Positions 19,360 to 56,898 are shown, numbered from the stretch's first letter. The stretch is 64,000 bases of DNA from an uncultured Bdellovibrionales bacterium (GCA_964605525.1 CAZSCV010000002.1:69888-133887); one strand, 5' to 3'. Translations and numbers: made by a program. Notes: a model not told the origin generated them from the letters alone.

Positions 19360-19950
19360 ATGAAGATAACAAAAGAAAAATTAGAACATTATTATTTTGC
19401 AAAAAAAATGTCGGTCAAAGAAATGACTAATGTTTTTATAAGAAGTGAAACATGTATTAGTTATTGGATGAAAAAATATGGAATAAAGAAAAGAACGATA
19501 AGCGAATCTGTATATTTAAAAAATAATCCGAATGGTGATCCATTTAAGATAAGGAAGGATTTAAACAGTGAGTTGACGGAATTAAAAGGAATAGGTATAG
19601 GGTTATATTGGGGTGAGGGAAACAAACGAAATAAAAATTCTATAAAAATTGGGAATACTGACCCAGCGTTAATAAAAAAATTTATAGAATTTTTAGTAAA
19701 AATTTTAGGAGTAAAAAGAAAAAATATACGTTTTTCTTTGCAGGTTTTTAGTGATATGAATTCAGAAAAAGCCAAGAGATATTGGTTAGAAGAATTAAAA
19801 GTTGACCCTGCGCAATTTTCAAAAAAAATAACCATAACTCATTCCGGAAAAGTCGGTAATTATAAAAGAAAAACGCAATACGGTGTTCTCACGATGTATT
19901 ATCACAATACAAAGTTGAGAAATATTTTAATTGCAATGTTGCCGTTGTAG
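19360..19950 (+). CDS. free-standing putative LAGLIDADG-like homing endonuclease (N-terminal HTH-like segment)
   Basis: GIGLYWGEGNK followed by ALIKKFIEFLVKILGV resembles the LAGLIDADG helix plus the following scaffold helix (compare I-CreI LAGFVDGDGS...LDKLVDEIGVG). Sits between two tRNA genes, and its last 10 nt overlap the 5' end of the intron-containing tRNA. Assignment is by motif only. Confidence 0.35.
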   Translation: MKITKEKLEHYYFAKKMSVKEMTNVFIRSETCISYWMKKYGIKKRTISESVYLKNNPNGDPFKIRKDLNSELTELKGIGIGLYWGEGNKRNKNSIKIGNTDPALIKKFIEFLVKILGVKRKNIRFSLQVFSDMNSEKAKRYWLEELKVDPAQFSKKITITHSGKVGNYKRKTQYGVLTMYYHNTKLRNILIAMLPL

Positions 19951-20213
19951 CTCAGTTGGTAGAGCACATCCATGGTAAATTAAAAACTGCCCATTGATTA
20001 GGAAACTTTTCATTGAATCCCGAATAACGGTTAAAGACCTAGCACGAGGTTCAGACCGTGGCGAAATTTTCGCCCGAACGACTGACAAGGGGGACTAAGT
20101 CTTTGGAATACATTGATATGTTCAATATACAGTCTAGTTCTCTTATATAGGTGTTTTAAAAAAAAGAGATAGCAATGAAGGATGAGGTCCGCGGTCCGAT
20201 TCCGCGCAACGGC
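19941..20213 (+). tRNA. tRNA-Thr (anticodon GGU) gene interrupted in the anticodon loop: exon 1 at 19941-19976, exon 2 at 20177-20213
   Basis: Exon 1 is GCCGTTG TA GCTCAGTTGGTAGAGC A CATCC ATGGT. Exon 2 is AA GGATG AGGTC CGCGGTCCGATTCCGCG CAACGGC T. Acceptor stem 7/7 and anticodon stem CATCC/GGATG 5/5. Joined loop is ATGGTAA (U33, A37). Confidence 0.75.
19977..20176 (+). mobile_element. group I-like intron (200 nt) in tRNA-Thr(GGU) anticodon loop, inserted after nt 36
   Basis: 5' exon ends in U and the intron ends in G (omega-G). R-like element CGAACGACUGACA and S-like element AUAUACAGUCUAG can form P7 (GACUG/CAGUC). Size is comparable to the 205-nt Azoarcus tRNA-Ile intron. The P1/IGS pairing is only partly resolved by eye. 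Confidence 0.6.
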
Positions 20214-20256
20214 TCAGAGGAAGGTAAATATGTTAATATGTTAAAATGTAAAATAT

Positions 20257-20448: not shown

Positions 20449-20519
20449 GGCGGGTGTCGTACAGTGGCAGTACGTTGGTCTCCAAAACCAATAACGGGAG
20501 TTCGATTCTCTCCACCCGT
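20449..20519 (+). tRNA. tRNA-Trp (anticodon CCA)
   Basis: Acceptor GCGGGTG/CACCCGT (G1.U72), D stem GTAC/GTAC, anticodon stem TTGGT/ACCAA with loop CTCCAAA, T arm GGGAGTTCGATTCTCTC. Preceded by a GTCCGCC-ctg-GCGGAC hairpin. Confidence 0.75.
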
Positions 20520-20530
20520 GCATATCAATT

Positions 20531-20557
20531 AAAAAACGCTTGAATAAGGCGTTTTTT
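20531..20557 (+). terminator. rho-independent terminator after tRNA-Trp
   Basis: AACGC-ttgaataag-GCGTT stem followed by T6. Confidence 0.6.
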
Positions 20558-20687
20558 ACGTTTTTGCTGTAGGTTTATTTGACACACAATGATTTTTATG
20601 CTATCATAAGTAGTTATTGAGGAATAACCCTCAATACAATCCTCAGCGATCGAGGGATCACTCTCGACGCAAAAAAGGAGGCCAGTT

Positions 20688-21122
20688 ATGGCAAATTTAG
20701 TTCTTATTGGTAAAGAAGGACAAATCAAGGCAAAGTTATCCTGCTCTGCATCCTTGCCTCCGGACTTCAAAGTTCCGGAAGGCTGCATTTTAAGCTGGGA
20801 TGATCAGCCGCATCGTGCCGAAGGATGGTATAAGGGCAACCAGAATCGTGGTCCGGAAATCATCAAGCACAGGAGTGCAAGCGCAGTACTGAGGAACTAC
20901 CATCCTACAGTTCATATTCGAATCGAGAGTTCGGATGCCAGAGATCTGTTTGAGCTGATTGAGATCGTATGGCTGCACATTGGCGGAACAGTTATCCCTG
21001 CCAGATGGCCAGCCGAGAGAGATCAATCGTTTATCGCTGGCGTTCAGGGTGATTGCAGGCGATTGAAGGATGGGATTGTTCGGGTCAAACAAGTCATTGG
21101 AATGAAACTCGCCTCTCTCTAG
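20688..21122 (+). CDS. hypothetical protein, compositionally foreign (about 50% GC)
   Basis: Strong RBS AAGGAGG 7 nt upstream. GC and codon usage unlike the flanking genes. No recognised family. Confidence 0.55.
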   Translation: MANLVLIGKEGQIKAKLSCSASLPPDFKVPEGCILSWDDQPHRAEGWYKGNQNRGPEIIKHRSASAVLRNYHPTVHIRIESSDARDLFELIEIVWLHIGGTVIPARWPAERDQSFIAGVQGDCRRLKDGIVRVKQVIGMKLASL

Positions 21123-21207
21123 GGGGGGGTGGCATAAGCTAATGATGCAAACGAAAGGGTTCTCTAGCCGAGCTAGTTGATCCCTTTTTTGTTTATTGAA
21201 TGATGGG

Positions 21208-21244
21208 CCAGTGATTTACAACAGACCATCACTGGTCTTTTTTA
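21208..21244 (+). terminator. rho-independent terminator (CCAGTGAT...ATCACTGG + T-run) fused to repeat copy A
   Basis: 8-bp perfect stem followed by TCTTTTTT. Confidence 0.65.
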
Positions 21245-21340
21245 TTTCATCAAAACCATCGCTCTCTCCAATCTAATTTCAATCACATCCCAATTCTCCA
21301 ATATATTGGTTCGAAGCGTGTACCCTAGTCTGTGCAAAAT
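21238..21340. repeat. copy A of a roughly 105-bp intergenic repeat family (TTTTTTATTTCATCAAAACC...CCAATATATTGGTTCGAAGCGTGTACCCTAGTCTGTGCAA)
   Basis: Near-identical to copy C at 31786-31886; diverged copy B at 22969-23071. Contains the 12-bp perfect palindrome CCAATATATTGG. Confidence 0.8.
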
Positions 21341-21601
21341 AAAGCAGTTTTCTTTACGGAGGCTGTTTTTTTTGTCAGAAAATCTTTTTTAGCGTAACTT
21401 CTTTTTCTTCCATAGCGTTAATTGAGTTAACCCTCCAGTTTACCAGAAAAAGGGGCTTCGGGGTTTGAATTCGGGCCATGGCTGAGGGCTGGACATTTTT
21501 ATTTATTTGTGCAATAATCAAATGTTGCCAAATGATTGGCATCCCTTGAATGCAGGTGGCATTCACAGTTCCTAAAACCCTAAAATGGGAAAGGAGATGC
21601 T

Positions 21602-22915
21602 ATGAAAACGAAAGGGGAAAAAGATGGCTTGTTGGGAGGTGCAATGGCTTTCTATCATGATAAGGGCTTTGTTCCTGCATTTAAGCAAGCAATGCGATAT
21701 GCTGCAGGACGTGCTGGCCGAGTTGGGACTATGCTGGACTGGGTGGATGCACGATTAGCAATACCGCCGTACGAAAAACTGGGCATGCATGACACATCAA
21801 ATCCAACTCCTTGGGATCAGTACTACACAACCATGTCTGCTGAGTATGTTGGTATCAGCAAGGGTGGAACCAAAATCTTGATCGTTGCTCATGGTATCGG
21901 ACCAATGGCAACACTTGATGGTGTCGTCGAAGCATATCGATATCATTATAATGATAAGACACGCCGGACTGAGGGTGGCCGTATTTCAGTGGAGGAGTTC
22001 CGGAAGCTTGAGAGTGGCATCTATGGTGACGTGGTGATTGTCGATCTTGAAGAGTATGTATTTGAGCGTGAGTATCCGTTCATTGCAACTCTCCACTATT
22101 TTGATGCACTGGATGACTCAGTGCTTAAGGCTCGCCTTGGCTCAAGGGCTGATGAGTACATTGAGCAACATGCAAATTATGCAAGGAAATACCATCTGGA
22201 TGCTCATCAGCGTATGATTATAGATCCCTACATTATAGGGAACGAAGGACCGGGAATGTACTGGGTCAAAAATACCAAGCCCGAAGATGGTCTTGCATAT
22301 GCTCATCTTCTGAGCGTCGGTGCGATTACGAATTTACATGTCAGCCAAAGCGAGCATCGGGTCCCCAGCTGGGTGTCTGATGTGAACACACATGGTTGGT
22401 ATGACGGTACTCGCCTGATTGGTATTCCTGAGGGTAAGCTTGCATCTATCGGCAAAGGCCCTGATGCATATCGCCTGCTGCGCAAGCACTGGCAAGAGCT
22501 TTTTGAGCCGAGTGGTCTCAACCGCTCACCCGATGGGCTCTTCGTTCTGATGCAAATGCCGGACAAGACGTGGTTCACGCAGTTCCAGAAGAAGGGAGCT
22601 AGCGCTGACAGCTACGAACCGGAATTCCGTGTGACGTCGATGGAGAAGGTGGGGGAACTTGCTCGGTTTTACACCGAGTCGAACTATCCCGTCCCGATCT
22701 TCCGATACGACATCCGCGAGGCGCAGGCTGTGCTTTCCAAAGAAACCAATGCTTACGAACTCGTTGGTGATCCGACCAAGACAGGTGGTGCTGATAGTCA
22801 GGAGACCTGTCTCGTGCAGGGCTATCGCATCGAAATTGACCATACGCAACGGCTTATGCGACAAGAAGTATTGGCCAATAATTACGAAAAGATGATGCAG
22901 CTTCACGAGAAGTAA
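21602..22915 (+). CDS. hypothetical protein, compositionally foreign (about 50% GC), 437 aa
   Basis: RBS GGAAAGGAG; no recognisable domain by inspection. Confidence 0.55.
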   Translation: MKTKGEKDGLLGGAMAFYHDKGFVPAFKQAMRYAAGRAGRVGTMLDWVDARLAIPPYEKLGMHDTSNPTPWDQYYTTMSAEYVGISKGGTKILIVAHGIGPMATLDGVVEAYRYHYNDKTRRTEGGRISVEEFRKLESGIYGDVVIVDLEEYVFEREYPFIATLHYFDALDDSVLKARLGSRADEYIEQHANYARKYHLDAHQRMIIDPYIIGNEGPGMYWVKNTKPEDGLAYAHLLSVGAITNLHVSQSEHRVPSWVSDVNTHGWYDGTRLIGIPEGKLASIGKGPDAYRLLRKHWQELFEPSGLNRSPDGLFVLMQMPDKTWFTQFQKKGASADSYEPEFRVTSMEKVGELARFYTESNYPVPIFRYDIREAQAVLSKETNAYELVGDPTKTGGADSQETCLVQGYRIEIDHTQRLMRQEVLANNYEKMMQLHEK

Positions 22916-22930
22916 AAGCATCGAAATCCT

Positions 22931-22974
22931 GCGGAGCCGCACCCACAGCAATATGTGGGTCGCGGCTCTTTTTT
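22931..22974 (+). terminator. rho-independent terminator (GAGCCGC...GCGGCTC + T6) fused to repeat copy B
   Basis: Long GC-rich stem-loop followed by a T-run. Confidence 0.6.
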
Positions 22975-23071
22975 ATTTCATCAAAATTCTTACTTGCTCT
23001 AATTTTGCCTTAACACTTTCCCAATTTTCCACCATTAAAGTTCGAAGTATATACCTTCTCCTGTGCTGATG
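22969..23071. repeat. copy B (diverged) of the roughly 105-bp repeat family
   Basis: Shares TTTTTTATTTCATCAAAA...CCAATTTTCC...AGTTCGAAGTATATACC...GTGCTGATG with copies A and C. A further right-end fragment is at about 23868-23915. Confidence 0.65.
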
Positions 23072-23233
23072 AAAAACGAGGCTTATTTGAGCTTTGTTTT
23101 TGTTTGGGGACTGGACATGATAACTTCTTTTAGTGTCTACCAACGCGCATTGAATAAAGGCAGGAACTATGTTAGTATCGAGGTGGATTATAAATTAATT
23201 CACCTTGTTTTTATTAGATTAAAAAAATGCAAT

Positions 23234-23770
23234 ATGACAAACAAATTAGAAAAATGGGAGGAAATTTCCAGAGAGGAAATTTTTAGTAAATATGGGAGAG
23301 GCATTGAAAAAGTTGATTTCAAATTGCCAAATGGAGAAATCACTGATTTCTATATCAAAAAGGAAAGTGTTTTCGTGGCTACCCTAGCGATAACCAAAGA
23401 TGAAAAAATCATTCTTGTTAAGCAATTCAGACCAGGACCAAAAGAAATTCTTACTGAATTGCCTGGTGGTTATGTTGACAAAGGCGAGATTCCGAAGCAA
23501 GCGGCAGAAAGAGAACTTTTAGAAGAGACTGGGTATAAGGGAAGCGCAGAATTTGTAACATCTATCATTGGCGACGGTTATTCTACGATGGAAAAAAATT
23601 GTGTCGTGGTGACTGATTGTGAGAAAGTTTCCGAACAAAAACTTGAAGAAAATGAATTTACTGAAGTTGTGTTGATGTCAATTGCAGAATTTAGAGAATT
23701 GCTTAGAAGTGGAAAAAGCTCAGATGTTGAAGTCGGATATCTTGGTTTGGATTACTTAGGATTATTGTAG
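23234..23770 (+). CDS. NUDIX hydrolase (ADP-ribose pyrophosphatase-like)
   Basis: Nudix box GGYVDKGEIPKQAAERELLEETGY. Start chosen at the internal ATG (MTNKLEKWEE), because the upstream part of ORF 23063 overlaps repeat B. Confidence 0.75.
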   Translation: MTNKLEKWEEISREEIFSKYGRGIEKVDFKLPNGEITDFYIKKESVFVATLAITKDEKIILVKQFRPGPKEILTELPGGYVDKGEIPKQAAERELLEETGYKGSAEFVTSIIGDGYSTMEKNCVVVTDCEKVSEQKLEENEFTEVVLMSIAEFRELLRSGKSSDVEVGYLGLDYLGLL

Positions 23771-24140
23771 ATAAAAAAATAGTGAGCAGGAGAGTGGGGT
23801 AATTTATATTTGCTGGCTTAAGTCTGGAATATAAATATATTCCTTTCTTTTCATAAAAATAGTTCTAACGTCCTTTACTACCCCGTGCATATAAAACAAG
23901 GCTTATTTGCTAGAGTCTTGTTTTCGTGTCTTGTGGATTGGGGTTAGAATTGTGATATAATGGGCATATGAAAATAAATAAATTGACTCCGGAAGAAAAA
24001 AGAATAATTATCGACGCGGTAGCTACCTATGAGTAAAATTGGATTAGGTCTATAAAGTGGTTTAACAACGGGGATGGGCGGGTGTAAGATATTAGTATAA
24101 TCTAAATTATACTAATCTGAATTATAGATATTATAAAAAT

Positions 24141-24215
24141 ACTAAGAATTCAGGAATTTCAGCCAAAGACTGATCCGCCTATGGCGGAAATTCAGTAATA
24201 AGTTCAGTAATAAAC
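24141..24215. repeat. left boundary repeat of defense-like island (GAATTCAGGAATTTCAG...CCGCCTATGGCGG AAATTCAGTAATAA GTTCAGTAATAAAC)
   Basis: Shares the core GGAATTCAGTAATAAA (direct) and the GAATTCAGGAATT/AATTCCTGAATTC module with 30190-30262. Confidence 0.6.
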
Positions 24216-24231
24216 TTATTAAAACAAAAAA

Positions 24232-24396
24232 ATGCCAAGAAGAAAATCGGAAGATAATAATATCAGGAAATTGACCAAATCCGGCAACGGGTCAATTGGG
24301 CTAACGCTTCCGATTGAAGTTGTTCGCGAACTTGGTTGGAAAGAAAAGCAGAAAGTTTACCCCGTAGTCAGCCCCGATGTACTACTGGGGTGGTAG
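24232..24396 (+). CDS. AbrB/SpoVT (MazE-like) swapped-hairpin DNA-binding small protein, 54 aa
   Basis: KLTKSGNGSIGLTLPIEVVRELGWKEKQKV is typical of AbrB/MazE-type antitoxin or regulator domains. Below the ORF-track cutoff. Confidence 0.5.
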   Translation: MPRRKSEDNNIRKLTKSGNGSIGLTLPIEVVRELGWKEKQKVYPVVSPDVLLGW

Positions 24397-24539
24397 TCAA
24401 ACGAGTCCGTGGAGGCGTGCTGGTTAAGGACTGGAAAAATAAGATTTTATAAAAACTATGGCAAGCGAAAAGAAAATTGAGGCTTTTGAAAAAACCCTTT
24501 TTAAGGTGGCAGATAAATTGCGAAAAAAATATAAATATT

Positions 24540-25958
24540 ATGGATATAAGCGAAATTAAAAAAATAATTAATAGGGCTTTCGATGCTCGTTCAGAGCTAA
24601 GCGGAATAGAATTTAAAGATGCGCGCGGTGGATTTCCAGCAGACCCAACGGCAAAAACTCTTTCTGCTTTTGGCAATACGAAAGGTGGCGTTATTGTATT
24701 TGGCGCGTTGGAACATAAAGATCGTTCTTTGGAAATTGTTGGCACGCAAAATTCTGCAGTACTACAAGAGCGTATGGCACAGTTGTCATCTGAAGGCATG
24801 AGTGAAGTATTGCGTCTGGAATATCAAATCCTTTCTATGGAAGGAAAAACAGTTTTGGCAGTAGTTGTTCCGGAATGCCGTAGTCATGTTAAGCCATATT
24901 ATGTAAAAAAATTTGGTATGGATAGAGGTGCATTTGTGCGTGACGGTATTACGGATCGTCAGATGACAGCCGAGGAAGTGCGAAGTTGCGTGCGTAATGC
25001 GCAAGTTGATGATTTTGATGGAAATTGTGCGGATAATCTAATCAAAGAAGATCTATCGATTATAAAAATTGAAAATTTTCTCAAAAAAAGTGCAAAAAAG
25101 GTTGGACGTATTTTTGATAGTGTTGACGATGTGCTTCTTAAAAATATCGGCGTGGCACGTGAATGTGGTGGTGTTTTACGCCCAACAATTGCAGGTTATC
25201 TTATTTTTGCAAATCAAAATCCGCAAAACACTCTTCAGTTTGAGCGTTATAAGATTAGATGTGTCAGATTTAAGGGATCAGGAGTAGCGAGTGATATTAT
25301 TGATAAAGCAGATATCGTTGGCACACTGGATGAACAGATTGATGTTATGGAATCTTTTGTATTACGCAATATTAAAAATAGTGCTGAAATTGTAGGCACT
25401 AAACGAGTTGAGAGATATGAATATCCGGAAAAAGCAGTTCGCGAGATTTTGGCTAATGCTGTTATTCATAGGGATTATCGTATCACAGAAACATATACGC
25501 AAGTCAATATTTTTGACGATCGTATAGAAGTATTTAATCCAGGGAACTTGCCTCCGGGTGTAACAGTGGAAAATATTAAGGATGCGCAAGAGAGTCGCAA
25601 TCGCATCATAGCAGCTCGTCTTAATGAAATGGACTATCTTGAAGAATATGGTCGTGGTATCGATATAGTTTTTACATTGATGTCAGCATGGGGATTGTTG
25701 CCGCCAATTTTCAAAAACTCATCAAATAGCTTTAAGGTTGTCCTACCAGGTGAAAGATTGAGTAAATTAAATGATCGTCAGATTAAAATTTGGCAATATT
25801 TGATGGACAACAATAGATTAAATCGTAAGGATGTTGAAAAGATATTACCAGATACCCCCGTGGAAACTATCAAATATGATTTACGAAAAATGAAGGATAT
25901 GGGTCTTATTGGCCAACGAGGCGAATCTATTAACACATATTATGAGGCAGCCTTTTAG
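24540..25958 (+). CDS. AlbA_2 (Schlafen-like) DNA-binding domain + HATPase_c_4 ATP-binding protein (putative regulator, COG2865-like)
   Basis: N-terminal IKKIINRAFDARSELSGIEFKDARGGFP...GGVIVFG AlbA_2-type; C-terminal RecG-C/HATPase_c_4-like region and winged HTH. Confidence 0.55.
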   Translation: MDISEIKKIINRAFDARSELSGIEFKDARGGFPADPTAKTLSAFGNTKGGVIVFGALEHKDRSLEIVGTQNSAVLQERMAQLSSEGMSEVLRLEYQILSMEGKTVLAVVVPECRSHVKPYYVKKFGMDRGAFVRDGITDRQMTAEEVRSCVRNAQVDDFDGNCADNLIKEDLSIIKIENFLKKSAKKVGRIFDSVDDVLLKNIGVARECGGVLRPTIAGYLIFANQNPQNTLQFERYKIRCVRFKGSGVASDIIDKADIVGTLDEQIDVMESFVLRNIKNSAEIVGTKRVERYEYPEKAVREILANAVIHRDYRITETYTQVNIFDDRIEVFNPGNLPPGVTVENIKDAQESRNRIIAARLNEMDYLEEYGRGIDIVFTLMSAWGLLPPIFKNSSNSFKVVLPGERLSKLNDRQIKIWQYLMDNNRLNRKDVEKILPDTPVETIKYDLRKMKDMGLIGQRGESINTYYEAAF

Positions 25959-25961
25959 AGG

Positions 25962-26078
25962 AATTAACCGCAATTAACCGTAATAGTAAAAAATGGCTTA
26001 GGGAGGGGGAGGGGGAGGGTGTATAATGCCTAAAGGAATTAACCGCAATTAACCGTAATAGTAAAAAATAGCTTAAAA
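25962..26078. repeat. two 41-bp direct repeats (GGAATTAACCGCAATTAACCGTAATAGTAAAAAAT.GCTTA) separated by a G-tract GGGAGGGGGAGGGGGAGGG
   Basis: Read directly: 25962-26002 and 26037-26078. Each repeat contains AATTAACCG twice. The intervening G3-5 tracts fit a G-quadruplex motif. Confidence 0.7.
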
Positions 26079-26424
26079 TAAGGATTTTAAGGGTATGGAG
26101 TTTTAGACGAAATTAGACGAATTAAACGCAATGTCGAAAAAGGCTTAAATAAAAGACTTATGATCGTGTAGCCTTTTAAATTAAAGAATCTTAAAGGAAA
26201 CATTGGAGATTGGGGAAAGGGAGAAATATGAAAAGAAGATTGGGGTGGCCAAAAAAGAGGGTCGGAAATGCCGGTCTTTTGGATATAATCGCAATCATCT
26301 GACTGGATTACAAACTGGAATTGCTGCGAAGTTGCCCTTGCGATGCTCATTTGAGAAAGTGTTGAGTAATCAGTTGCTTGATGGTATTATATAAATATAA
26401 TAACATCCCTTAATTTCAACAAAT

Positions 26425-27447
26425 ATGGAACGAAAAGACATTATTAAAAAAATTGAGACATTGCGAAGCTCAAAGGTGATAACCTACGCAACCAGTGATC
26501 GGCAAGGTCCAGTCAATGCTCGGGTGGCGATGGATATTATTCCGATTATCAGCTCGCAACTGCGAAAGATTGGGAAGCAAGAAAAGATTGATTTGGTGCT
26601 GTATAGCGCAGGAGGCGACACCATGGTGCCATGGCGCTTGGTTTCGATGATTCGCGAGTATTGCGACCAGTTTTCTGTAATAATCCCATATAAAGCCCAT
26701 AGTGCGGCCACTATGATTTCTTTGGGAGCGGATGAAATTGTGATGAGCGATATGAGCGAGCTTTCACCGATTGATCCGTCCACAGCCAATGTTTTCAATC
26801 CGATTGACCCGCAAAATCCGCAAAAACGCATCCCGATTTCCGTGGAAGAAGTGATGAGCTATTTTGATTTGGCAAAAAACAAGTTTGGAATCAAGAGCGA
26901 TGAGGAACTGACCAAGATTTTCAACAAGTTTGTGGAAAGCACACCATCCATCCATCCTTTGGCTTTGGGTAATGTTAATCGAACACACAATCTGATTAAA
27001 ATCCTAGCGAAAAGATTACTTAAGAGCCATAAGGAGTCGATGAAAGAGGATGAGGTGGAAAAAGTGATTGAATTCCTGACGGAAAAATTATATTCACATC
27101 AATACTACATTGGAAGAAAAGAAGCCAAGGAAGATCTCGGCATTAAGTCTGTGGTTTTTGCTGGCCAAGATCTTTCTGATCTGATGACGGATATTTATGA
27201 AGAGTATGAAAAGGAAATGAATATGCGAAAAATGTGGAATCCGGAGAATGAAATCGGCGGCAATGCAGAAACTAGAAAAGAATATAAAATCGCATTCGTC
27301 GAAAGCGCGGAAACGAGCAATCATTTTGGAATCAATATGGAATTTAAAAAAGTCCAACAAAACATCCCACAACAAACTCCGCAAGGAATCATTCAAATTC
27401 CACAGGAGCAAATTGTTTGGAGAATGATTGGACAGGGGTGGAAATAA
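26425..27447 (+). CDS. Clp-fold serine protease (SDH/SppA-ClpP-like)
   Basis: LVLYSAGGDTMVPWRLVSMIREYCDQFSVIIPYKAHSAATMISLGADEIVMSDMSELSPIDP resembles the ClpP/crotonase-fold catalytic core (Ser, then His/Asp). Confidence 0.45.
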   Translation: MERKDIIKKIETLRSSKVITYATSDRQGPVNARVAMDIIPIISSQLRKIGKQEKIDLVLYSAGGDTMVPWRLVSMIREYCDQFSVIIPYKAHSAATMISLGADEIVMSDMSELSPIDPSTANVFNPIDPQNPQKRIPISVEEVMSYFDLAKNKFGIKSDEELTKIFNKFVESTPSIHPLALGNVNRTHNLIKILAKRLLKSHKESMKEDEVEKVIEFLTEKLYSHQYYIGRKEAKEDLGIKSVVFAGQDLSDLMTDIYEEYEKEMNMRKMWNPENEIGGNAETRKEYKIAFVESAETSNHFGINMEFKKVQQNIPQQTPQGIIQIPQEQIVWRMIGQGWK

Positions 27448-27448
27448 A

Positions 27449-27733
27449 ATGAAAAATTTAATCAACATAGAAATCAAAGATTCATTCAACAAGAAGGATC
27501 ACTCATACAAAAAAGATGAAGATATTTCCAATCATGTCTCCACGCTAAATGATACAAAAAACATTTTGGAAACTTATTCTGCTAGTGTGGGATCGATTAC
27601 GGGACATCATTTTGATGGAAGTATAAATATTGTAAAAAATCAAGGAAAAGGAATTTGGAGAGAAATTATTATTGGAACTACCAGTGCAGTTCTTGGTGCA
27701 GTTATAAGTTATTTCATTTTTGGAATTAAGTAA
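27449..27733 (+). CDS. small protein with C-terminal TM anchor (operon partner of the protease)
   Basis: Start 2 nt after the protease stop; C-terminal IIIGTTSAVLGAVISYFIFGI helix. Confidence 0.4.
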   Translation: MKNLINIEIKDSFNKKDHSYKKDEDISNHVSTLNDTKNILETYSASVGSITGHHFDGSINIVKNQGKGIWREIIIGTTSAVLGAVISYFIFGIK

Positions 27734-27739
27734 TAAAAT

Positions 27740-28429
27740 ATGAAGAAGTATAAAATTGATATTTATGTATTGTTGCCTGCAATAGCATTCTTGGTGGGTT
27801 GGTTTTTAAAAGGGCTCATAAATTTCAATATAATCAAATTACTAAATTCAAATTTTTTTGTTGCTCTTATCACTGCAATAGTGGGCTATACTGCTATCCA
27901 TTTGTATAAAAAACAGCAAGCAGATAATAAGAAAAATGCTGCAAGACTTATCATACAGGAAATAAGATATGCGGAACAACAAATACGAAATGCAAAAATG
28001 TTGACGCCTGCAGTAGAAACCAATTATTATTTGGCATTAAAATTATTACCAACAAATAGCTGGCATAAAAACATACATTTATTTGTTGAGGATTTGCAAG
28101 AAGAAAATCAACTTGATCTCGTTAGTCAATTTTACTCCCAAGCAGCTTATCTGGATAGCGTAATTGAAATAATTTCCAACGAAAAAAACAAGACATGGAA
28201 TGTTGTAAAATCCTCACTTCTTGCAAATGAAAAAGGTCAAATGCAAATAGCAATGGGGCTTATCCTTCCCTCTGGACATAGTACATTAGACGCTTCAAAT
28301 GAAAATTTTAAAATTGAATTAAAGCTTCAGGCCAATCAAATTTTATCTGATGTTACAGGCAAAATAGAGTTTATATATAATTCTTCTGCTGTGGATAAAT
28401 TAAGATCTATTGCTAAAGGTAAGTTGTAA
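27740..28429 (+). CDS. membrane protein with two N-terminal TM helices and cytoplasmic domain
   Basis: Tightly spaced in the same operon; no family recognised. Confidence 0.45.
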   Translation: MKKYKIDIYVLLPAIAFLVGWFLKGLINFNIIKLLNSNFFVALITAIVGYTAIHLYKKQQADNKKNAARLIIQEIRYAEQQIRNAKMLTPAVETNYYLALKLLPTNSWHKNIHLFVEDLQEENQLDLVSQFYSQAAYLDSVIEIISNEKNKTWNVVKSSLLANEKGQMQIAMGLILPSGHSTLDASNENFKIELKLQANQILSDVTGKIEFIYNSSAVDKLRSIAKGKL

Positions 28430-28441
28430 AAAATATTAATT

Positions 28442-29215
28442 ATGAAAAAGGACGACCAGCGATGGACACGAGAACAGACAATAGTCGCTTTTAACTTATA
28501 TTGTAAAATCCCTTTCAATAGAGTTACTTCAAGTCACCCTGAAATAATAAAAATCGCCAAAATTATCGGTCGGAGTGTAAATTCGGTAAAAATGAAAATA
28601 GGCAATTTTGGAAGTTTTGATCCAGAGCTTAAAAAAAGAGGAATTGTTGGACTTACCAATGCAAGCAAGCTGGATGAGGTTGTTTGGAATGAATTTAATA
28701 ATAATTGGGATGATTTGGCTTTCGAAAGCGAAAAAATATTAACGAGCTTTGAGGGAGGGGACATTTTGAAAAATGCACAAGCCAGTGAAGATAATTTTTG
28801 TTTTGTGGAAGGAATTGAAAAGGAAAGATTGGTAAAGACAAGGGTAAATCAAAGCTTTTTTCGCCAGACAGTTTTATCTGCGAATAATTCATCCTGTTGT
28901 ATTACTGGAATAGATATTCCAGCACTTCTTATTGCCAGTCATATAATTCCTTGGAGCAAAGCGGCCAAAGACAGGCTAAACCCACGAAACGGATTATGTC
29001 TGAATGCCCTGCATGACAAAGCTTTCGATAAAGGACTGATGACTATTACCCCTGACTTTAAAATAAAAATATCTCCAAAAATACTCGAGAACCCGAGTGC
29101 GCCAATTGAAAAATGGATAGCCAGTTTTGAAGGTAAAAATATAATAATTCCAGAAAGATTTGTGCCAACAACTCAAATACTTGAGTATCATAATAAAAAT
29201 ATTTTTCAATTATGA
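28442..29215 (+). CDS. HNH endonuclease (HNH_2 / putative restriction endonuclease family)
   Basis: CCITGIDIPALLIASHIIPWS...NGLCLNALHDKAFDKGLMTI matches the HNH_2 core. Confidence 0.65.
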   Translation: MKKDDQRWTREQTIVAFNLYCKIPFNRVTSSHPEIIKIAKIIGRSVNSVKMKIGNFGSFDPELKKRGIVGLTNASKLDEVVWNEFNNNWDDLAFESEKILTSFEGGDILKNAQASEDNFCFVEGIEKERLVKTRVNQSFFRQTVLSANNSSCCITGIDIPALLIASHIIPWSKAAKDRLNPRNGLCLNALHDKAFDKGLMTITPDFKIKISPKILENPSAPIEKWIASFEGKNIIIPERFVPTTQILEYHNKNIFQL

Positions 29216-29713
29216 TTGCTAAAACAACATATATTCGGCCGAATATTACGATTGAATATGAGATTATCGGATCAAGAAAGTTTTACATATATAATTACAA
29301 GGGAATCCATTATAGGGTTTTTTGTTCGTTGAAAAATTTACGAAATTTTATTACAAAGGCATGCGAAACATGGATTTTTGAATGTGGCACTGAAAATGAA
29401 TTAGAAAAATATTTATACAGCCATATCCAAGCACATTAAAATCAAGAATTTTTTGGTTGCGATCGCGTTGGGCATGACACCAAATAAGAAATGGGACGGC
29501 TTCACTAAGGCGCACGGCGGCTATATTATTGTCAGGGAGGACGGGGAACTTGTTTGTTATCATCTCTATAATAGAGATGAGTTTCAAAATTATCTTTACA
29601 AGAATACCAAATTGGATACGCCAAGCACAACCAGACATAAATTCGGGAGTATTTATGAAGAAAACGGAGAGAAAAAAGTAAAATATAATCTGCAAATAAG
29701 GTTTATAAAATAG
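29212..29713 (+). pseudogene. frameshifted remnant ORFs (29212-29439 frame 1; 29453-29713 frame 2), possibly a decayed restriction endonuclease
   Basis: Two short adjacent ORFs in different frames immediately upstream of vsr. No methyltransferase present. Family not identifiable by eye. Confidence 0.3.
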
Positions 29714-29723
29714 TATTCAAATC

Positions 29724-30125
29724 ATGGCAGATATTTTTTCAAAAAATAAAAGATCCGACATAATGTCCAAAATCAAAAGTAAGGAAACGGGAATTGAAAT
29801 AAAACTGAGAAAAGAACTGTGGAAGGCGGGCTACAGATATCGGAAAAATGTATCAGGCTATTTCGGAAAGCCTGATATTTTATTAAAAAAATACAAGACG
29901 GTTATTTTCGTTGATTCCTGTTTTTGGCACGGATGTAAAAAACACGGATCAATGCCTCAAACTCGCAAGAAATTTTGGAAAGAAAAAATCGAGCGAAACA
30001 AAGAACGAGACAAAGAGGTTAATAAGTATTACAAAAAAATAGGCTGGAAGGTTATCAGAATTTGGGAGCATGATATAATAAATGGCTCATGGATAAAAGG
30101 GGTCAGGCACTTTTTTGAGAAATAA
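29724..30125 (+). CDS. vsr: very short patch repair endonuclease Vsr
   Basis: RSDIMSKIKSKETGIE...FVDSCFWHGCKKHG...GWKVIRIWEHD is canonical Vsr. Confidence 0.85.
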   Translation: MADIFSKNKRSDIMSKIKSKETGIEIKLRKELWKAGYRYRKNVSGYFGKPDILLKKYKTVIFVDSCFWHGCKKHGSMPQTRKKFWKEKIERNKERDKEVNKYYKKIGWKVIRIWEHDIINGSWIKGVRHFFEK

Positions 30126-30189
30126 GATTAAAATAAAATTATGACACCAAAAAACAAAAAATTTTCCATTGCTCTTGCCGGCTGGCGCA

Positions 30190-30262
30190 AGGCTCTGAAT
30201 TGTCCGTAATTAATTCCTGAATTCCTGCCCGCCTCTGGAGGGAATTCAGTAATAAATAAAAA
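30190..30262. repeat. right boundary repeat of defense-like island (AATTCCTGAATTCCTG CCCGCC TCTGGAGGG AATTCAGTAATAAATAAA)
   Basis: Shares core sequences with 24141-24215. Contains the inverted repeat CTGAATTCC...GGAATTCAG. Confidence 0.6.
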
Positions 30263-30337
30263 TTAAAATAAATAAATAAAAAAAATATCCAAACTCATCA
30301 TTTACTCTTAATTATTTAATTTGGATTCTCAACTAAG

Positions 30338-30499
30338 ATGTCCCAACAAAAAATAAAAATCATCACTGTAAATGACAAGATGCAGTCAGGATACAAATAT
30401 AATCTGACTGAGTTGATGGGGAAGAATTTTGATCCGGCGTTCAAGCCGGAGCTGACTCCCAAGGAGATGCTGGCGCTGGAATTGTATTCAAAAGCGTGA
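30338..30499 (+). CDS. 53-aa ORF upstream of fic (possible cognate small partner/antitoxin, or N-terminal gene fragment)
   Basis: MSQQKIKIITVNDKMQSGYKYNLTELMGKNFDPAFKPELTPKEMLALELYSKA. Its stop lies in the first CAAAAGCGTGAAAA repeat. Confidence 0.3.
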   Translation: MSQQKIKIITVNDKMQSGYKYNLTELMGKNFDPAFKPELTPKEMLALELYSKA

Positions 30500-30534
30500 A
30501 AATGTGAGAATTTTAATGATTTTTCACGATTATG

Positions 30535-30562
30535 TTGACAAAAGCGTGAAAAAGAGTATAAT
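30535..30562 (+). promoter_or_regulatory. consensus sigma70 promoter TTGACA-16-TATAAT for fic, overlapped by direct repeat CAAAAGCGTGAAAA (x2)
   Basis: Perfect hexamers. The 14-nt motif occurs at 30489-30502 and within the spacer at 30539-30552. Confidence 0.65.
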
Positions 30563-30570
30563 ATTAACAT

Positions 30571-31458
30571 ATGGTTAAAATACTAAATGTCTACAATAAA
30601 ATAAGTTTTCTGCGCGAGCGATACTATGAGGCATCTGCCGATAAAGATGCGCTTATTAAGCTTATTGCTGAAGCTGAAGTGGCTGAACAGGTGTATAACT
30701 CCAATGCCATCGAAAACAGCACTCTTTCACTTGAAGAAACGGAAAAAATACTTTTACAGATTGATCTGGATAGATATATTTCTGAGCGAGAAATTTTTGA
30801 AGCCAAAAATTTGGCACGAGTTGTGTCATACATTGATAAAAAATCTAAAGAGCAAGAACTCACTCTTGAGGTAATTTTGTCATTGCATAAAATGCTAATC
30901 TCCAATATTCGCGATGACATTGCTGGCAGATTCAGAAAAGATAATGAATTTGTGCGAGTTGGAAATCACATTGCGCCTAATCCAAAAGAAGTGGTTGAAC
31001 GATTAGAAAAAATGCTGGCTGAATATAATGCTTCAAGTCACGAAAATATTATAAAGCGTATTGCAAAACTGCATTTGACTTTTGAATATGCTCATCCATT
31101 TTGTGATGGCAATGGACGCATTGGGCGAGTTATTAATAATTATCTGTTAATGCGAGAGGGGTTCGTGCCGATAAATATAAAATTTATTGATCGCAAAAAA
31201 TATTATGAAGCGTTTCGAGAATTTGATGCAAATGGATCGACTGCTATTATGGAGGAAATAGTTGGCAAAGCTTTGACTAATAGTTATCATAAGCGGTTGG
31301 CATATTTGGAAGGCAAAAAAATAATTACCTTGGTTGAATATGCAAAAAACAATAAGCTTTCACATTCTAATATGATAAATAAGGCTAGTAGACAAACTAT
31401 TGAGGCTTTTTTGGAAAAGAATGTTTGGAAAATTGGGATCAATAATGATACAAAATAA
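30571..31458 (+). CDS. fic: Fic/Doc family protein (AMPylation-type toxin-like)
   Basis: Fic motif HPFCDGNGRIGR. Confidence 0.85.
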   Translation: MVKILNVYNKISFLRERYYEASADKDALIKLIAEAEVAEQVYNSNAIENSTLSLEETEKILLQIDLDRYISEREIFEAKNLARVVSYIDKKSKEQELTLEVILSLHKMLISNIRDDIAGRFRKDNEFVRVGNHIAPNPKEVVERLEKMLAEYNASSHENIIKRIAKLHLTFEYAHPFCDGNGRIGRVINNYLLMREGFVPINIKFIDRKKYYEAFREFDANGSTAIMEEIVGKALTNSYHKRLAYLEGKKIITLVEYAKNNKLSHSNMINKASRQTIEAFLEKNVWKIGINNDTK

Positions 31459-31785
31459 TATTTTATAAACGAATCAGAAACAAGAGCTGAATATATTGAT
31501 CCCAAGTTGAAAACCAGTGGCTAGGGAGAAGTTGAAGCTAAAAGGTATACTCAATTCTGTGCTGATGTGATAAAATTCGAAATAGTTTGGTAGTGTCCCC
31601 GATAACATCTGCGTTGCAGACTGAAGGATGCTAGGGAATTGGCTCTGGTTTTCCCGGACACTAAAAACGCACGGTCCCCAGCGGTCATGGTCCACCGTAT
31701 AGGCCACGTTGCTGAAATATGGACTTGTTTACCGGGATTTGAGCAGGAATGCTATTTATTAAAGCTTCCTGATACTCAGATCCCG

Positions 31786-31886
31786 TTTTTTATTTCATCA
31801 AAACCATCGCTCACTTCAATTTAATCTCAATCACATCCCAATTCTCCAATATATTAGTTCGAAGCGTGTACCCTAGTCCGTGCAAG
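31786..31886. repeat. copy C of the roughly 105-bp repeat family (near-identical to copy A)
   Basis: TTTTTTATTTCATCAAAACCATCGCTCACTTCAATTTAATCTCAATCACATCCCAATTCTCCAATATATTAGTTCGAAGCGTGTACCCTAGTCCGTGCAAG. A partial right-end copy at about 31540-31580 (GGTATACTCAATTCTGTGCTGATG) lies in a GC-richer segment. Confidence 0.8.
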
Positions 31887-32036
31887 TACTGAAAAATGCC
31901 TTTAAATTGGCATTTTCTGCGTTTTGTTTTAAACACATTCATTTGGGTGTGTTTTTGTTTTTGGGAGTGGGGGCGAGAAGAAAATAATCGTGATATAATA
32001 AGAATATTGAATAATAAGTGAGCGAGTATTTTTTGT

Positions 32037-37813: not shown

Positions 37814-39721
37814 TTATTCTTTGGCTGGAGTTTCGGCAGGAACAATTCTGATAAAATTATCCGGCCGGTTATCAATATTCAATTCCCATTCCGGGAGGGA
37901 ACTTTCACTGTAATAATAATGCGCCGAGAGAGTATCTTTGTTCTTTTTTTTGTTAGATTCCAGTTTTTCAAAATAACGCATTTTTCCTCTGCGAGTGATG
38001 ACAAAATAATCTATGGAATTTTTTGTAGAATTTACCGAATAGTTGGTAGTGCAAGTGCCTGAAAAAAATTCACATACTCCGTAATAATCCGACCAGACAG
38101 TCAATTCTTTGGCGCCAGGAAGGCTATTGAGGTATTTGGCGGCCTCAAACCCTCCATATCCCCAGGAATCAGCTATAATGTATTTTTTGGGCAGTAGGTT
38201 ATTTGTGTAATTGAGATAGAAGGGCTTGGCAAGAATTATTGGAAGTGCCAAGGAGAAAACAAGAGCAACTGTCAAAATAAGCTTGTTGCCTTTTTTAAGT
38301 ACAAAAGCAGATGAAAGCATGGAATAGAAAGAAATCGCCGCTAGAAAATATGCCGCTGGATACAATATAATATCATAGCGAATTATGGCAAATAAATTTT
38401 TCGAAAGAACAGCTCCAAAAAAAGATAGTATGAAAAAAGAAAGTGAAAATGAAATAAAATGAAATGGATTTTTCTTGAAAAAAATTGACCTGATCCAATG
38501 TGCCAGCATTAAAAAAATAACAACAGGTTGGAGGGAAAAAACAAAAATTTTAAATTCAAGCATGACTTTTTCAAAAAAAGACGTTCCTTCGGGAAAAAAT
38601 TTCACATCAAATGGAATTTCGCTTATTTGGAGAAAATTGCCCCCAATCGACCAATTCAGTAAAACTGCAAGAAAAATAAATGCCAAAACTGAATAAACGA
38701 CTGAAGAAATAACAAATCTGGCTTTGTGCAGAAAATTTGATATTTTCAAAAAGAGGCTTGCTTTTATTTTTACGCACAGAATCAGGATTATTAATAGCGC
38801 AAGTATGCAAATAAGAAATACGGGAATTCCTTCATATAGTAGCGTTCCTTTTAAAAGAATTGAGAAATCTAATAATGAAGCCGGAAGAAATATGGCGAAC
38901 ACAACCACTGAGGTCAAAATTGTCAGCACGTAACCTGTGATAAGTTTTTTTACATCCCTTCCGAGAAGCTCCGCATCAGATGAAGATTTTCTAAAGAAAA
39001 ATATCCAGGCAAGTATGATGGAAAAAAAATAAATGAAAAGAAAGGTGCTGGTATATTTGCAAAGCAAGCTTAATCCCAAAAAAATACCGCTCAAAAAACT
39101 CAAAGGAAATTCTTTCTTGATTATAAAAGCGAGAAATAATAGAACAGAGGCAAAAGTGCAAGACCAAATTAAGGCATCAGGATTTATGACCTGGGAAATT
39201 CCGACAAGAATAGGGGATAGGGACATAATAAAGACAGCCAAAAAAGAAAACGGCTTATTTCCGGTCAATTTGTTGGTAATCCAATAAAAAGATAACAACG
39301 AAAGCGCGGACCAGATCAACAAGGGGATTCGGAAGAAAAAATTTCTTTTTATTGTTGATTTTTCCCTGGCTTCACCGAAAGATTCACTGTCGCCGGAAAC
39401 AGTTGTTTCTCTGGGAAATTGATTGAAGTTTCTGTTTAAAAAATAACCGGCACCGTCTATGAGGGCTAATGTGATTCCGGGCTTGTCATTTATGTAGGTT
39501 TTTTCAAATTCTCCACTGGAAATACCCTTCCAATAATGAGGAATTCTTTCATATTTCCAAAGCTGTTCATCTGGGGATACGAAATTTGTTAAATGAAAAA
39601 AACCGAATGATAAAAATATAAAAGCCGGCAAAACGGCAAAAATCGCGGATTTTTTTTGTAATAATTTCAGAATACGTATGCGCATATTAATATCAAAGCA
39701 AGTAGACAACAAGGATAGCAA
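37814..39721 (-). CDS. GT-C fold membrane glycosyltransferase, ArnT/PMT (GT39/GT83)-like, family A paralog 1
   Basis: First-loop DE motif (SPDEQLWKYERIPHYW), INDKPGITLALIDG, more than 10 TM, C-terminal soluble domain GYGGFEAAKYLNSLPG...VWSD...GVCEFFSGTC shared with the next two genes. Confidence 0.6.
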   Translation of the reverse strand: MLSLLSTCFDINMRIRILKLLQKKSAIFAVLPAFIFLSFGFFHLTNFVSPDEQLWKYERIPHYWKGISSGEFEKTYINDKPGITLALIDGAGYFLNRNFNQFPRETTVSGDSESFGEAREKSTIKRNFFFRIPLLIWSALSLLSFYWITNKLTGNKPFSFLAVFIMSLSPILVGISQVINPDALIWSCTFASVLLFLAFIIKKEFPLSFLSGIFLGLSLLCKYTSTFLFIYFFSIILAWIFFFRKSSSDAELLGRDVKKLITGYVLTILTSVVVFAIFLPASLLDFSILLKGTLLYEGIPVFLICILALLIILILCVKIKASLFLKISNFLHKARFVISSVVYSVLAFIFLAVLLNWSIGGNFLQISEIPFDVKFFPEGTSFFEKVMLEFKIFVFSLQPVVIFLMLAHWIRSIFFKKNPFHFISFSLSFFILSFFGAVLSKNLFAIIRYDIILYPAAYFLAAISFYSMLSSAFVLKKGNKLILTVALVFSLALPIILAKPFYLNYTNNLLPKKYIIADSWGYGGFEAAKYLNSLPGAKELTVWSDYYGVCEFFSGTCTTNYSVNSTKNSIDYFVITRRGKMRYFEKLESNKKKNKDTLSAHYYYSESSLPEWELNIDNRPDNFIRIVPAETPAKE

Positions 39722-39755
39722 ATACCAGAAAGACGGCTGATTATGGAAATTTTTT

Positions 39756-41639: not shown

Positions 41640-41648
41640 AGATAAGTT

Positions 41649-47305: not shown

Positions 47306-47318
47306 ATAAAAAAATAAT

Positions 47319-48146
47319 ATGCATAAATTGCAAAAAAACCTCGGGGAATACTGGAATAAATTCAAATCGTTGATAGCGAAAAATAAAAAAGTTGTGGTTA
47401 TTGGTGTTGCATTGGCGGTGCTTTTACTTTCCGGTTTTTGGGTTTGGAGGGAATGTGAAGTTAATCGTCCCTTAAAAATTGGGATTATGTCTGACATTCA
47501 CGCCGCTAACGACAAAGTGCGAATGGCTGACAATGAACCGGCGGGCTATCCGAGAAAATATAAGGAATATTTTGCATCCGCTTTGGATAAAATGAAAGAA
47601 GAGAAGGTCGATGTGGTATTGGCACTAGGGGATAACACTAATGTGGGCAATCCAAAATATGCAAAAAGTCTAATGGAAATTATGGCAGAAAAAAAAGCGA
47701 GTGTTATGTGGGTAAAAGGAAATCATGACCGGACAAAAACCAAAGTAATGACCTATTTCGGAATCGACAAGACATACTATTTCCAAGATGTTAAAAATTG
47801 GCGTATAATTGTGCTGGATTCTTCATTTACCGGAAAAGATTATACTGGCGAAATAGACGCGGAGCAGATGAAATGGCTCAAGGAAGCGCTCAAAACCGAC
47901 AGACGCGTGATTATTGCAATGCATCATCCAATATTTAACAAGGAAAATTTGGAAAATATTTATCCGATTTACAAAGATTTTGTGGAAACTATTTCAAATA
48001 GTCACAATGTTAAGGATGTGTTTTTTGGACATTTTCACAAATATGATATGGTTAAGGAAATAAACGGAGTAAAATATCATCTCGTCCCATCATTGACCGG
48101 AAATGAAAACGAACCGATTTTTAAGATCATAGAATTTGAAGAATGA
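47319..48146 (+). CDS. calcineurin-like metallophosphoesterase, paralog 1
   Basis: IGIMSDIHA, LGDNTNVGN, GNHD, GHFH motifs; N-terminal TM. Confidence 0.75.
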   Translation: MHKLQKNLGEYWNKFKSLIAKNKKVVVIGVALAVLLLSGFWVWRECEVNRPLKIGIMSDIHAANDKVRMADNEPAGYPRKYKEYFASALDKMKEEKVDVVLALGDNTNVGNPKYAKSLMEIMAEKKASVMWVKGNHDRTKTKVMTYFGIDKTYYFQDVKNWRIIVLDSSFTGKDYTGEIDAEQMKWLKEALKTDRRVIIAMHHPIFNKENLENIYPIYKDFVETISNSHNVKDVFFGHFHKYDMVKEINGVKYHLVPSLTGNENEPIFKIIEFEE

Positions 48147-48988: not shown

Positions 48989-48997
48989 AAAAAAATT

Positions 48998-50767: not shown

Positions 50768-50772
50768 AAAAT

Positions 50773-55347: not shown

Positions 55348-55424
55348 ATCGGAAATGAATTCATTTTTGTCCCTTTAAAATATAATAAAAAATTAGAATT
55401 GGGCTAATATACGGAGGGAGGATT

Positions 55425-56714: not shown

Positions 56715-56898
56715 AGACGAAATGCCATGAAGAAATTAAGGGATGGCACATCGTCCAACACTGTATATCTGGTTTCGCAAAAGAGAAAATCTGCATAATT
56801 CTTTTCTTTTAAAATCAGCTTTTTTGTATTTTTTTGCCAAAAGAAAACCCCAGGGAAGTGTTATCCTGGGGTTCGCGTGTGTGGCAACGATTTGCCCT

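Follow-up and report, generated by a model that had tools for sequence, protein, structure and literature searches.

A 64,000-nucleotide (nt) stretch of contig CAZSCV010000002.1 (69888-133887), hereafter the window, with positions counted from its first letter, carries an array of gene modules that starts at the 3' end of a tRNA-Trp gene and is punctuated by copies of a 100-nt repeat. We propose, at a probability of roughly one half, that these repeats are stacked attachment (att)-type junctions, left by the serial site-specific capture of integrase-less modules at tRNA-Trp with a recombinase acting in trans. The proposal is built on a defined repeat family, on a core within it that equals the 3' end of tRNA-Trp, on the interchangeability of the tRNA gene and the repeats as left partners of the same downstream sequences, on the recurrence of such arrays at one locus, and on the presence of one module in three different positions. 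From these observations we infer the site-specific nature of the recombination, the position of the crossover and the action of the enzyme in trans. A preliminary description of this DNA had noticed the repeats and likened them either to the attC cassette sites of integrons or to att remnants stacked by serial integrations; it is the latter part that gains support here, while the link to tRNA-Trp and a coding frame on the opposite strand had escaped it.

A family of repeats ending like tRNA-Trp

A repeat search within the window defined three copies of the repeat, A (21238-21337), B (22969-23068) and C (31786-31885), which we assign to the minus strand after the open frame that they contain. 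In ungapped alignment with A, copy C is 94% and copy B 65% identical, in agreement with the earlier impression of two near-identical copies and a diverged one. The identity of A and C spans precisely the start codon to the stop codon of the minus-strand frame, whereas between subtypes identity falls to ~65% and the longest common run to 18 nt. The constant left part of the repeat, TTATTTCATCAA, corresponds on the opposite strand to the final three codons and the stop of that frame. An anchored strict pattern of 23 bases, CATCAAAA-N33-CCCAATT-N13-GTTCGAAG, matches just A, B and C in the window, with 0.00 matches expected in shuffled sequences, and combined nhmmer and tblastn searches of the whole window returned no further full copy in the 64 kb. 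The same pattern occurs at 2 loci among 185,579 species genomes and at 4 metagenome loci, so that the repeat is no ubiquitous element behind unrelated core genes, the finding that had been named as one that would speak against a role in recombination.

The remaining sites that had been listed as right-end fragments turned out to differ from each other. The one at 23868-23915 belongs to a complete shorter relative of the repeat, the short-type copy f1 (23804-23890, minus strand), which encodes the frame MHGVVKDVRTIFMKRKEYIYIPDLSQQI followed by a stop, contains the palindrome GGAATATAAATATATTCC and has the right end ..CCCCGTGC; it is 80-89% identical to copies in related contigs, namely L010 (equivalent to L006/L002), L004 and L021, with two copies in each of the last two. 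The other, at 31540-31580, has ~11 identical bases (CTGTGCTGATG) and GTATA (nhmmer E=2.8), and might be a decayed stub of a B-type copy (31535-31566, minus strand) with the remnant frame ..HQHRIEYTF and stop. Two further features attributed to the family hold for some copies only. The initial T-run is the tail of a terminator in A and B, where hairpins precede it (21206-21237 and 22934-22968), but not in C or in the related L001 and L003, and the 12-bp palindrome CCAATATATTGG, said to be present in both A and C, is perfect only in A, while C carries the imperfect CCAATATATTAG and B and the relatives lack it.

The tRNA-Trp(CCA) gene (20450-20521, plus strand; ARAGORN and Rfam) is the anchor and leftmost boundary of the array, and its 3' end, ..CACCCGTGC, matches the right ends of the repeats. 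We aligned 24 junctions on their final GTGC, comprising 6 tRNA-Trp genes and 18 repeat copies. All 6 tRNA-Trp genes end in ..CCCGTGC; the repeat copies end in ..(C/T/G)(C/G)(C/T)(G/A)T(G/A)C, with CCCGTGC as the commonest form. The repeat and tRNA-Trp have their terminal 8-10 nt, CCCGTGC(A), in common, a stretch shorter than typical identity segments and too short for ordinary homologous recombination.

The sequences to the right of the junction link the two kinds of left partner most directly. They consist of an A-run, a hairpin and a T-run, followed by a promoter, and belong to a few sequence families, which can have either tRNA-Trp or a repeat copy on their left. Of the 6 tRNA-Trp right flanks, 5 have a homologue behind a repeat copy (z = 12-25 against shuffles), and the homology begins exactly at the junction formed by the terminal GTGC. 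In particular, the flank of the window tRNA, ATATCAATTAAAAAACGC.., corresponds to ATATCATAAAAAACGCC.. in L009, the hairpin in question lying at 20530-20558 (plus strand, found by terminator scan) and being homologous to the post-repeat hairpin of L009 with z=12.3. Likewise, the 3' end and flank of the L021 tRNA-Trp are 86.5% identical over 52 nt to the core of copy B with its flank, including the hairpin of CGAGGC type at 23072-23104 (plus strand). At five junctions, drawn from four contigs, the distance of CTTCGAAC from the core is constant (+51..+60); this motif is an inverted copy of GTTCGAAG, which sits at -27..-20 in the repeat. When tRNA-Trp with its flank is compared with the repeats and their flanks, the best local alignments are located at the GTGC junction or within the flanks, outside the repeat body, with mixed z-scores of -0.8 to 15.9. 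A repeat body descended from a decayed tRNA-Trp was considered and discarded: agreement is confined to the last 8-10 nt and to a GTTCGA hexamer, and no tRNA covariance match was found in 21150-24050 at E<=10. In L020 a further tRNA-Trp 3' fragment, 30 nt long and composed of the T arm and acceptor end of a different allele, follows the gene at a distance of 60 nt (~6480-6572, minus strand); integration at a tRNA end usually leaves such a scar.

Arrays at the same locus and modules found at different positions

Arrays at the rpmG-tRNA-Trp locus are present in seven distinct contigs (the window, L004, L010-13, L020, L021, L034-36 and L037), with 1-5 copies of the repeat that all lie in the orientation of the tRNA. 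Upstream, these share the order seen in the window, i.e. rpsB, tsf, a PSP1-domain gene, a TPR gene, tRNA-Thr, tRNA-Tyr, rpmG and tRNA-Trp, and their cargo differs. In L010-13 genes for radical SAM (rSAM), Ddl-like, ATP-grasp and C39 proteins are followed by a short copy, a gene for a 437-aa protein, a full copy and LysRS; L004 has three copies ~1 kb apart, and L034-36 five. The L020 array contains S51, HD and NUDIX genes, a copy, and then a methyltransferase (MTase) and an AlbA_2 gene among others, while that of L021 runs AAA_18, short copy, two open reading frames (ORFs), full copy, P-type ATPase, short copy, Fic and full copy; in L037 the 437-aa module directly follows tRNA-Trp. Copies delimit modules away from tRNA-Trp too: in L018, which adjoins tRNA-Leu, one copy separates PycTM and further genes from MFS and further genes and another copy follows; L019 has a methyltransferase between two copies; in L003 HsdR and further genes precede a copy, and in L001 a copy lies upstream of a P-type ATPase. 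Two other lines were followed and dropped. Strain contigs with a different array were sought in L007, L025 and L026, all of which match the window fully, and a viral origin was dismissed after four IMG/VR scans, each with its own pattern, gave only chance matches (a phage structural region in L008, a T7-like intergenic hairpin in L022-24 and a 16-mer only in L027-33).

Cassette-like behavior is seen in the 437-aa gene, whose module also comprises its promoter, the hairpin ahead of the repeat and the repeat itself. The left neighbor of this module is copy A in the window, a short-type copy in L010 and tRNA-Trp itself in L037. Its nucleotide identity to the window version is 82% in L010 and 88.7% in L037. 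Between the window and L010 the homology of this module ends rightward at the core of B, and the L037 and L010 modules have a common 5' leader from the core onwards. A second unit, the Fic unit at 30495-31470 of the window, has a counterpart of 80% identity in the Fic module found in the L021 array. The nearest named relatives of the 437-aa protein come from metagenome-assembled genomes of Candidatus Moranbacteria and Parcubacteria, and on this account we read the source as a genome of the ultra-small bacteria of the candidate phyla radiation (CPR)/Patescibacteria, probably Moranbacteria-like. Homologues of the protein with 62-65% identity also occur, in other Parcubacteria-type contigs, 1-3 kb downstream of tmRNA genes and without the repeat (L014, 8635-9041; L016, 6704-7076; L017, 1748-2120); hence the 437-aa gene is recurrent cargo at a second classical integration hotspot.

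A conserved micro-ORF on the minus strand of the repeat

On its minus strand the repeat is an open frame of 31-33 codons with the pattern MHGLGYTLRTNILENWDxIExRLERAxxLMK and a TAA stop lying inside TTTTTTATTTCATCAA; its consensus is (M)HGLGYTLRTNILENW(D/E)x(I/V)ExRLERAxxLMK(QI). In copy A the frame occupies 21242-21337 and reads (TTG)LHRLGYTLRTNILENWDVIEIRLERAMVLMK and stop; that of B reads ..HQHRRRYILRTLMVENWESVKAKLEQVRILMK (..HRRRYILRTLMVENWESVKAKLEQVRILMK) and stop; C is as A, with a premature TGA seven codons ahead of the usual stop. In all related loci the frame is open. Its start, ATG-CAC-GGG, is the complement of CCCGTGCAT, i.e. of the core that matches tRNA-Trp. The MH position is ATG or TTG in most full-length copies and CAG or TGG in the B-type and L003 copies.

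Several measures show that this micro-ORF is under codon-level purifying selection. Across 12 copies and 20 codons the variability at the three codon positions is 15.4/11.4/23.8 bits, and the proportion of synonymous differences (pS 0.655) exceeds that of nonsynonymous ones (pN 0.312), the best values of the six frames. Arginine is kept across AGA, AGG, CGA, CGC, CGT and CGG, and leucine across five codons. Copies obtained by DNA methods only give the same order (14.8/10.7/20.3, permutation p=0.016) and are stop-free in 10 of 10 cases. The mean BLOSUM62 score per site is 2.78, against 1.89 for the sole other open frame. The latter, a plus-strand frame beginning FYFIKTIALSNL.., is open in 15 of 15 copies, but we rejected it because it scores lower in BLOSUM62, varies among codon positions in the wrong order, lacks a start codon and is disrupted in L037. 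We take the constraint on the minus-strand frame as established; the micro-ORF may also be translated.

Such constraint is what one would expect if the repeats were simply paralogous copies of a small gene for a 31-33-aa protein, the intervening modules being reshuffled by homologous recombination or gene conversion, for instance after uptake of DNA from relatives, with no dedicated recombinase. The codon statistics just given, the coincidence of the A/C identity with the start and stop codons, the L037 copy, a mosaic that suggests gene conversion, and the failure to find a recombinase all fit this. Nevertheless, we think it rather unlikely. The subtypes, with their low identity and short common runs, offer little to homologous recombination, and tRNA-Trp and the repeats are interchangeable left partners despite having only 8-10 nt in common. 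Moreover, the copies lie between terminator hairpins, with the micro-ORF starting 2-7 nt past a terminator T-run without a Shine-Dalgarno sequence and with no consistent promoter (the only promoter-like match inside the element is that of B, 9/12), and C has its premature stop.

A protein-like frame with a fixed stop and mutually unrelated upstream sequences could alternatively be the orphaned 3' end of a larger gene, either a chromosomal target or an element gene spanning attP as in SSV-type integration, whose full form would be retained only at the end of the array or in the excised form; selection in that unseen context would reconcile the constraint with the poor expression signals. The searches make this improbable. 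HMMER, run exhaustively against 1.84 billion representative proteins, returned 13 matches, all of 29-67 aa with the motif C-terminal and unrelated N-termini, and k-mer profile searches of 5.8 billion clusters returned only ORFs of 29-68 aa. Because these large searches return only short ORFs, we rejected the micro-ORF as the tail of any known long protein. Pfam and NCBIfam gave nothing for it, and a profile search of the PDB had its best hit at E ~0.8 to C-termini of Fe/Mn superoxide dismutases (Fe/Mn-SOD), which we judged not significant. Furthermore, to the right of every core lie a hairpin and a plus-strand promoter and no gene body.

A model of accretion and its relation to known systems

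In the accretion model that we favor, a module would begin with a terminator hairpin (hp2), after which come a promoter of its own, the cargo (one gene or several), a second terminator hairpin (hp1) and finally a ~95-nt junction element ending in CCCGTGC(A). A site-specific recombinase acting in trans would join the CCCGTGC core of a free module either to the core at the tRNA-Trp end or to that of a resident junction, and modules would thereby pile up downstream of the tRNA in one orientation. The attL site would then have the structure tRNA-core-P' and the internal junctions P-core-P', so that the 100-nt repeat would represent the P arm plus the core, with the P arm coinciding with the antisense micro-ORF. 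We regard site-specific recombination at CCCGTGC as the most economical explanation because the left partners are interchangeable even though they share only 8-10 nt, and because the same module is found at the tRNA or deeper in the array.

Several observations weigh against this model. No recombinase was found by Pfam among the ORFs of the window island, the other long ORFs being checked by reading their translations only, nor did the Pfam tables for L010, L021 and L034 list one within ~10 kb to either side of the gene that was looked up. The sole recombinase seen is a large serine recombinase ~10 kb from a copy in L019. Neither an empty-site allele nor an excised circle was observed, the strain contigs L007, L025 and L026 matching the window at 100% identity. 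The right flanks in the window lack CTTCGAAC. The 5' leader of the window 437-aa module is unlike that of L010 and L037, and the L037 copy has an A/C-type body between B-type flanks; from these two observations, gene conversion or homologous recombination also shapes the arrays. Finally, a role as an att site leaves the purifying selection on the micro-ORF unexplained.

The closest precedent for accretion is provided by cis-mobilizable elements (CIMEs), att-flanked elements without an integrase that accrete in tandem with integrative and conjugative elements (ICEs) or integrative and mobilizable elements (IMEs) at the 3' end of a tRNA or protein gene, as with ICESt1/ICESt3 (PMC5704250). As in CIME accretion, the units described here have no integration genes and sit in tandem at a single locus, further units would be expected to enter at an att site via the integrase of another element, and the junction repeats contain the 3' end of the target gene (here 8-10 nt), target and repeats being alternative left partners. 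Unlike CIMEs, the units measure 0.6-8 kb and often hold a single gene, show no ICE, IME or phage backbone remnants, form rows of up to five and are met at this one locus in many genomes; of the repeat, only 8-10 nt derive from the tRNA, the other ~90 nt being a conserved coding frame, and a cognate integrase was not found in our material.

Integron arrays resemble the present ones in another respect. They have a fixed platform followed by one-directional small units that each end in a recombination repeat of 60-140 bp, and clusters of attC sites lacking an integrase (CALINs) are known. Their attC sites are imperfect inverted repeats (R''-L''/L'-R') that fold as a bulged hairpin, and their cassettes are promoterless and expressed from Pc. 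That the repeats are attC sites, of a sedentary integron or a CALIN, was suggested by the one-directional array of small repeat-ended modules (the window, L004, L010, L020, L021, L034 and L037), each followed by a 75-100-bp repeat with GTT, by content that varies between related genomes, and by the occurrence of the same unit at differing positions, including the first beside the platform. We now regard this reading as hardly credible, since the folding test refutes it: when both strands of A, B, C and the L001 copy were folded as single-stranded DNA (8 folds), the minimum free energies were -0.6 to -6.5 kcal/mol and no fold was better than its shuffles (z -0.03 to +1.58), and there is no R''/L''-L'/R' symmetry. 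Rfam likewise had nothing relevant on the repeats. In addition, no intI was found, the platform is the 3' end of tRNA-Trp and not attI, the modules bring promoters of their own and have a terminator at either side, and the repeat encodes a micro-ORF.

Recombinase-less modules are also known from Xer-dependent systems, such as IMEX elements and the pdif modules of Acinetobacter plasmids, where short sites are served by a host recombinase in trans. The present modules are similarly without a recombinase and delimited by short conserved sites, the trans-acting enzyme being in our case a proposal, but their sites are direct and not inverted, and are tied to a tRNA end. A dif/Xer-like site is not supported, as inspection by eye only revealed no 28-bp XerC/XerD site at the junctions and the sequence after the core varies between copies. 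In SSV-type integration attP lies inside a coding sequence that matches the 3' part of a tRNA. A core that matches the tRNA end and overlaps a coding frame is shared with that arrangement; however, the frame here has only 31-33 codons and an integrase body was found on neither side.

Some copies show a further irregularity inside the element. GC-rich palindromic inserts (TCCGCCAGAGGCGGA..) of 24-52 nt or longer lie exactly at GTT^CGAAG in several of them (L034, 12804-12873, 10849-10934 and 10084-10153; L021, 10104-10168), and the L018 copy adjoining tRNA-Leu is truncated at this point, which marks a second recurrent breakpoint within the repeat element. These inserts and the truncation, together with the short length, the intergenic location and the constant proximity of hairpins, could be taken as the mark of a small non-autonomous element, comparable to miniature inverted-repeat transposable elements or repetitive extragenic palindromes, that inserts by terminators and tRNA 3' ends and delimits modules only in appearance. 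We find this very improbable: the flanks of the copies are mutually unrelated, without terminal inverted repeats or target-site duplication, and there is no fold; the copy number is low, with copies only in the array in 64 kb and few matches among species genomes; the copies are confined to arrays in strictly one orientation relative to tRNA-Trp; and the element is constrained at the codon level.

Organization of the window array and other features

Starting from tRNA-Trp and its hairpin, module 1 (20579-21122, plus strand, as are all modules and hairpins of the array) has a sigma-70-like promoter at 20579-20607 (11/12) and an ORF of 144 aa (20688-21122) without a family match. The hp1 hairpin ahead of copy A (21206-21237) has a T tail that is the start of A, its inner stem at 21223-21238 scoring as terminator-like, and the hp2 hairpin after A (21341-21369), of AACAG type, is homologous to the hairpin 3' of a B-like copy in L010 and L004. 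Module 2 (21476-22915) combines the promoter TGGACA-17-AATAAT (21490-21518; 10/12) with the GC-rich 437-aa ORF (21602-22915), and its hp1 hairpin (22934-22968) is kept along with the repeat in L010, L004 and L037. In agreement with the earlier notion of ORFs of foreign composition, the bracketed ORFs are GC-rich (0.445-0.498 at 21-23 kb vs ~0.35 elsewhere). Module 3 is an ORF for a NUDIX hydrolase (23063-23770), whose true start is probably near 23234; f1 follows, with a degenerate hp2 hairpin of CAAGGC type found by terminator scan (23893-23924).

Module 4 (23970-31470) is a multi-gene unit, mostly of defence-type or decayed genes, encoding a MazE-like protein, AlbA_2/HATPase_c_4, an SDH-type protease, HNH, a C-terminal fragment of HpaII, Vsr and Fic. 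The HpaII fragment is an 86-aa ORF that matches the C-terminal 84 residues of the restriction endonuclease (E=4e-37) and lies directly upstream of Vsr; the two (29453-30125) look like remains of a decayed restriction-modification system in the island. After the AlbA_2-type gene there are two 45-nt direct repeats (25956-26075), 96% identical and 75 nt apart, with a G-rich run between them. In the Fic gene a TATAAT ends 8 nt ahead of the ATG (30557-30573), and in a 22-codon ORF at 23970-24038 GTGATATAAT ends 6 nt ahead of the ATG (23953-23972); this promoter spacing suggests leaderless or near-leaderless starts in the source organism. Beyond copy C come two terminator-like hairpins (31893-31954), an Lnb_N gene (32037-) and a P-type ATPase.

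To the left of the array, tRNA-Thr(GGT) is split (19941-20215): 19941-19976 and 20178-20215 correspond to positions 1-36 and 37-74 of the intact L010 tRNA-Thr(ggt), and a 201-nt insert (19977-20177) directly follows the anticodon. ARAGORN missed this split gene, and Rfam gave no match to it at E<=1, to a group I intron or otherwise; the homologous region of L021 is likewise without a callable tRNA-Thr(ggt). Between tRNA-Tyr and this split gene lies an ORF of 196 aa (19360-19950) without a Pfam match, which has the same place and size in L021 and is absent from L010, where there is a 143-nt spacer; it may be a free-standing homing-endonuclease-like insertion. Elsewhere in the window, six large paralogous genes for membrane proteins (565-742 aa) at 37814-43877 (minus strand) and 43963-52479 (plus strand) have short DNA repeats common to the paralogues, and a separate repeat cluster at 55149-59760 (209 nt x3, 136 nt x2, 82 nt x3 and others) is unrelated to the junction repeats.

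A possible gene-capture platform in CPR bacteria

A broader interpretation, which we put forward as tentative, is that these arrays represent a previously undescribed gene-capture platform of CPR/Patescibacteria, similar to integrons in its working and made of different parts, with a recombinase in trans and the peptide as a functional component. The 3' end of tRNA-Trp would be its primary site, and self-expressed modules of one or a few genes, many of them defence-related, would be its cassettes. The cassette site would measure up to ~190 bp and comprise the ~95-nt micro-ORF arm, the CCCGTGC core and an arm with the hairpin and CTTCGAAC. The 31-33-aa peptide might act, for example, as a recombination or stabilisation factor carried on every cassette. 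In the literature on CPR bacteria with integrons, attC, genomic islands or tRNA-Trp we found no description of such a system.

CPR bacteria have tiny genomes and little is known of how they acquire genes, and the arrays point to a recurrent, precisely structured hotspot behind rpmG-tRNA-Trp. Its cargo includes Fic, Schlafen/AlbA_2 ATPase, HNH, remnants of restriction-modification, a PycTM effector, P-type ATPase and the CPR-wide 437-aa protein, and its junctions carry an unannotated family of micro-proteins that standard gene calling nearly always misses. If a dedicated recombinase does serve these sites, the system would be a second, structurally different solution to the problem solved by integrons, and the junctions would offer a practical handle on the accessory and defence genes of uncultivated lineages.

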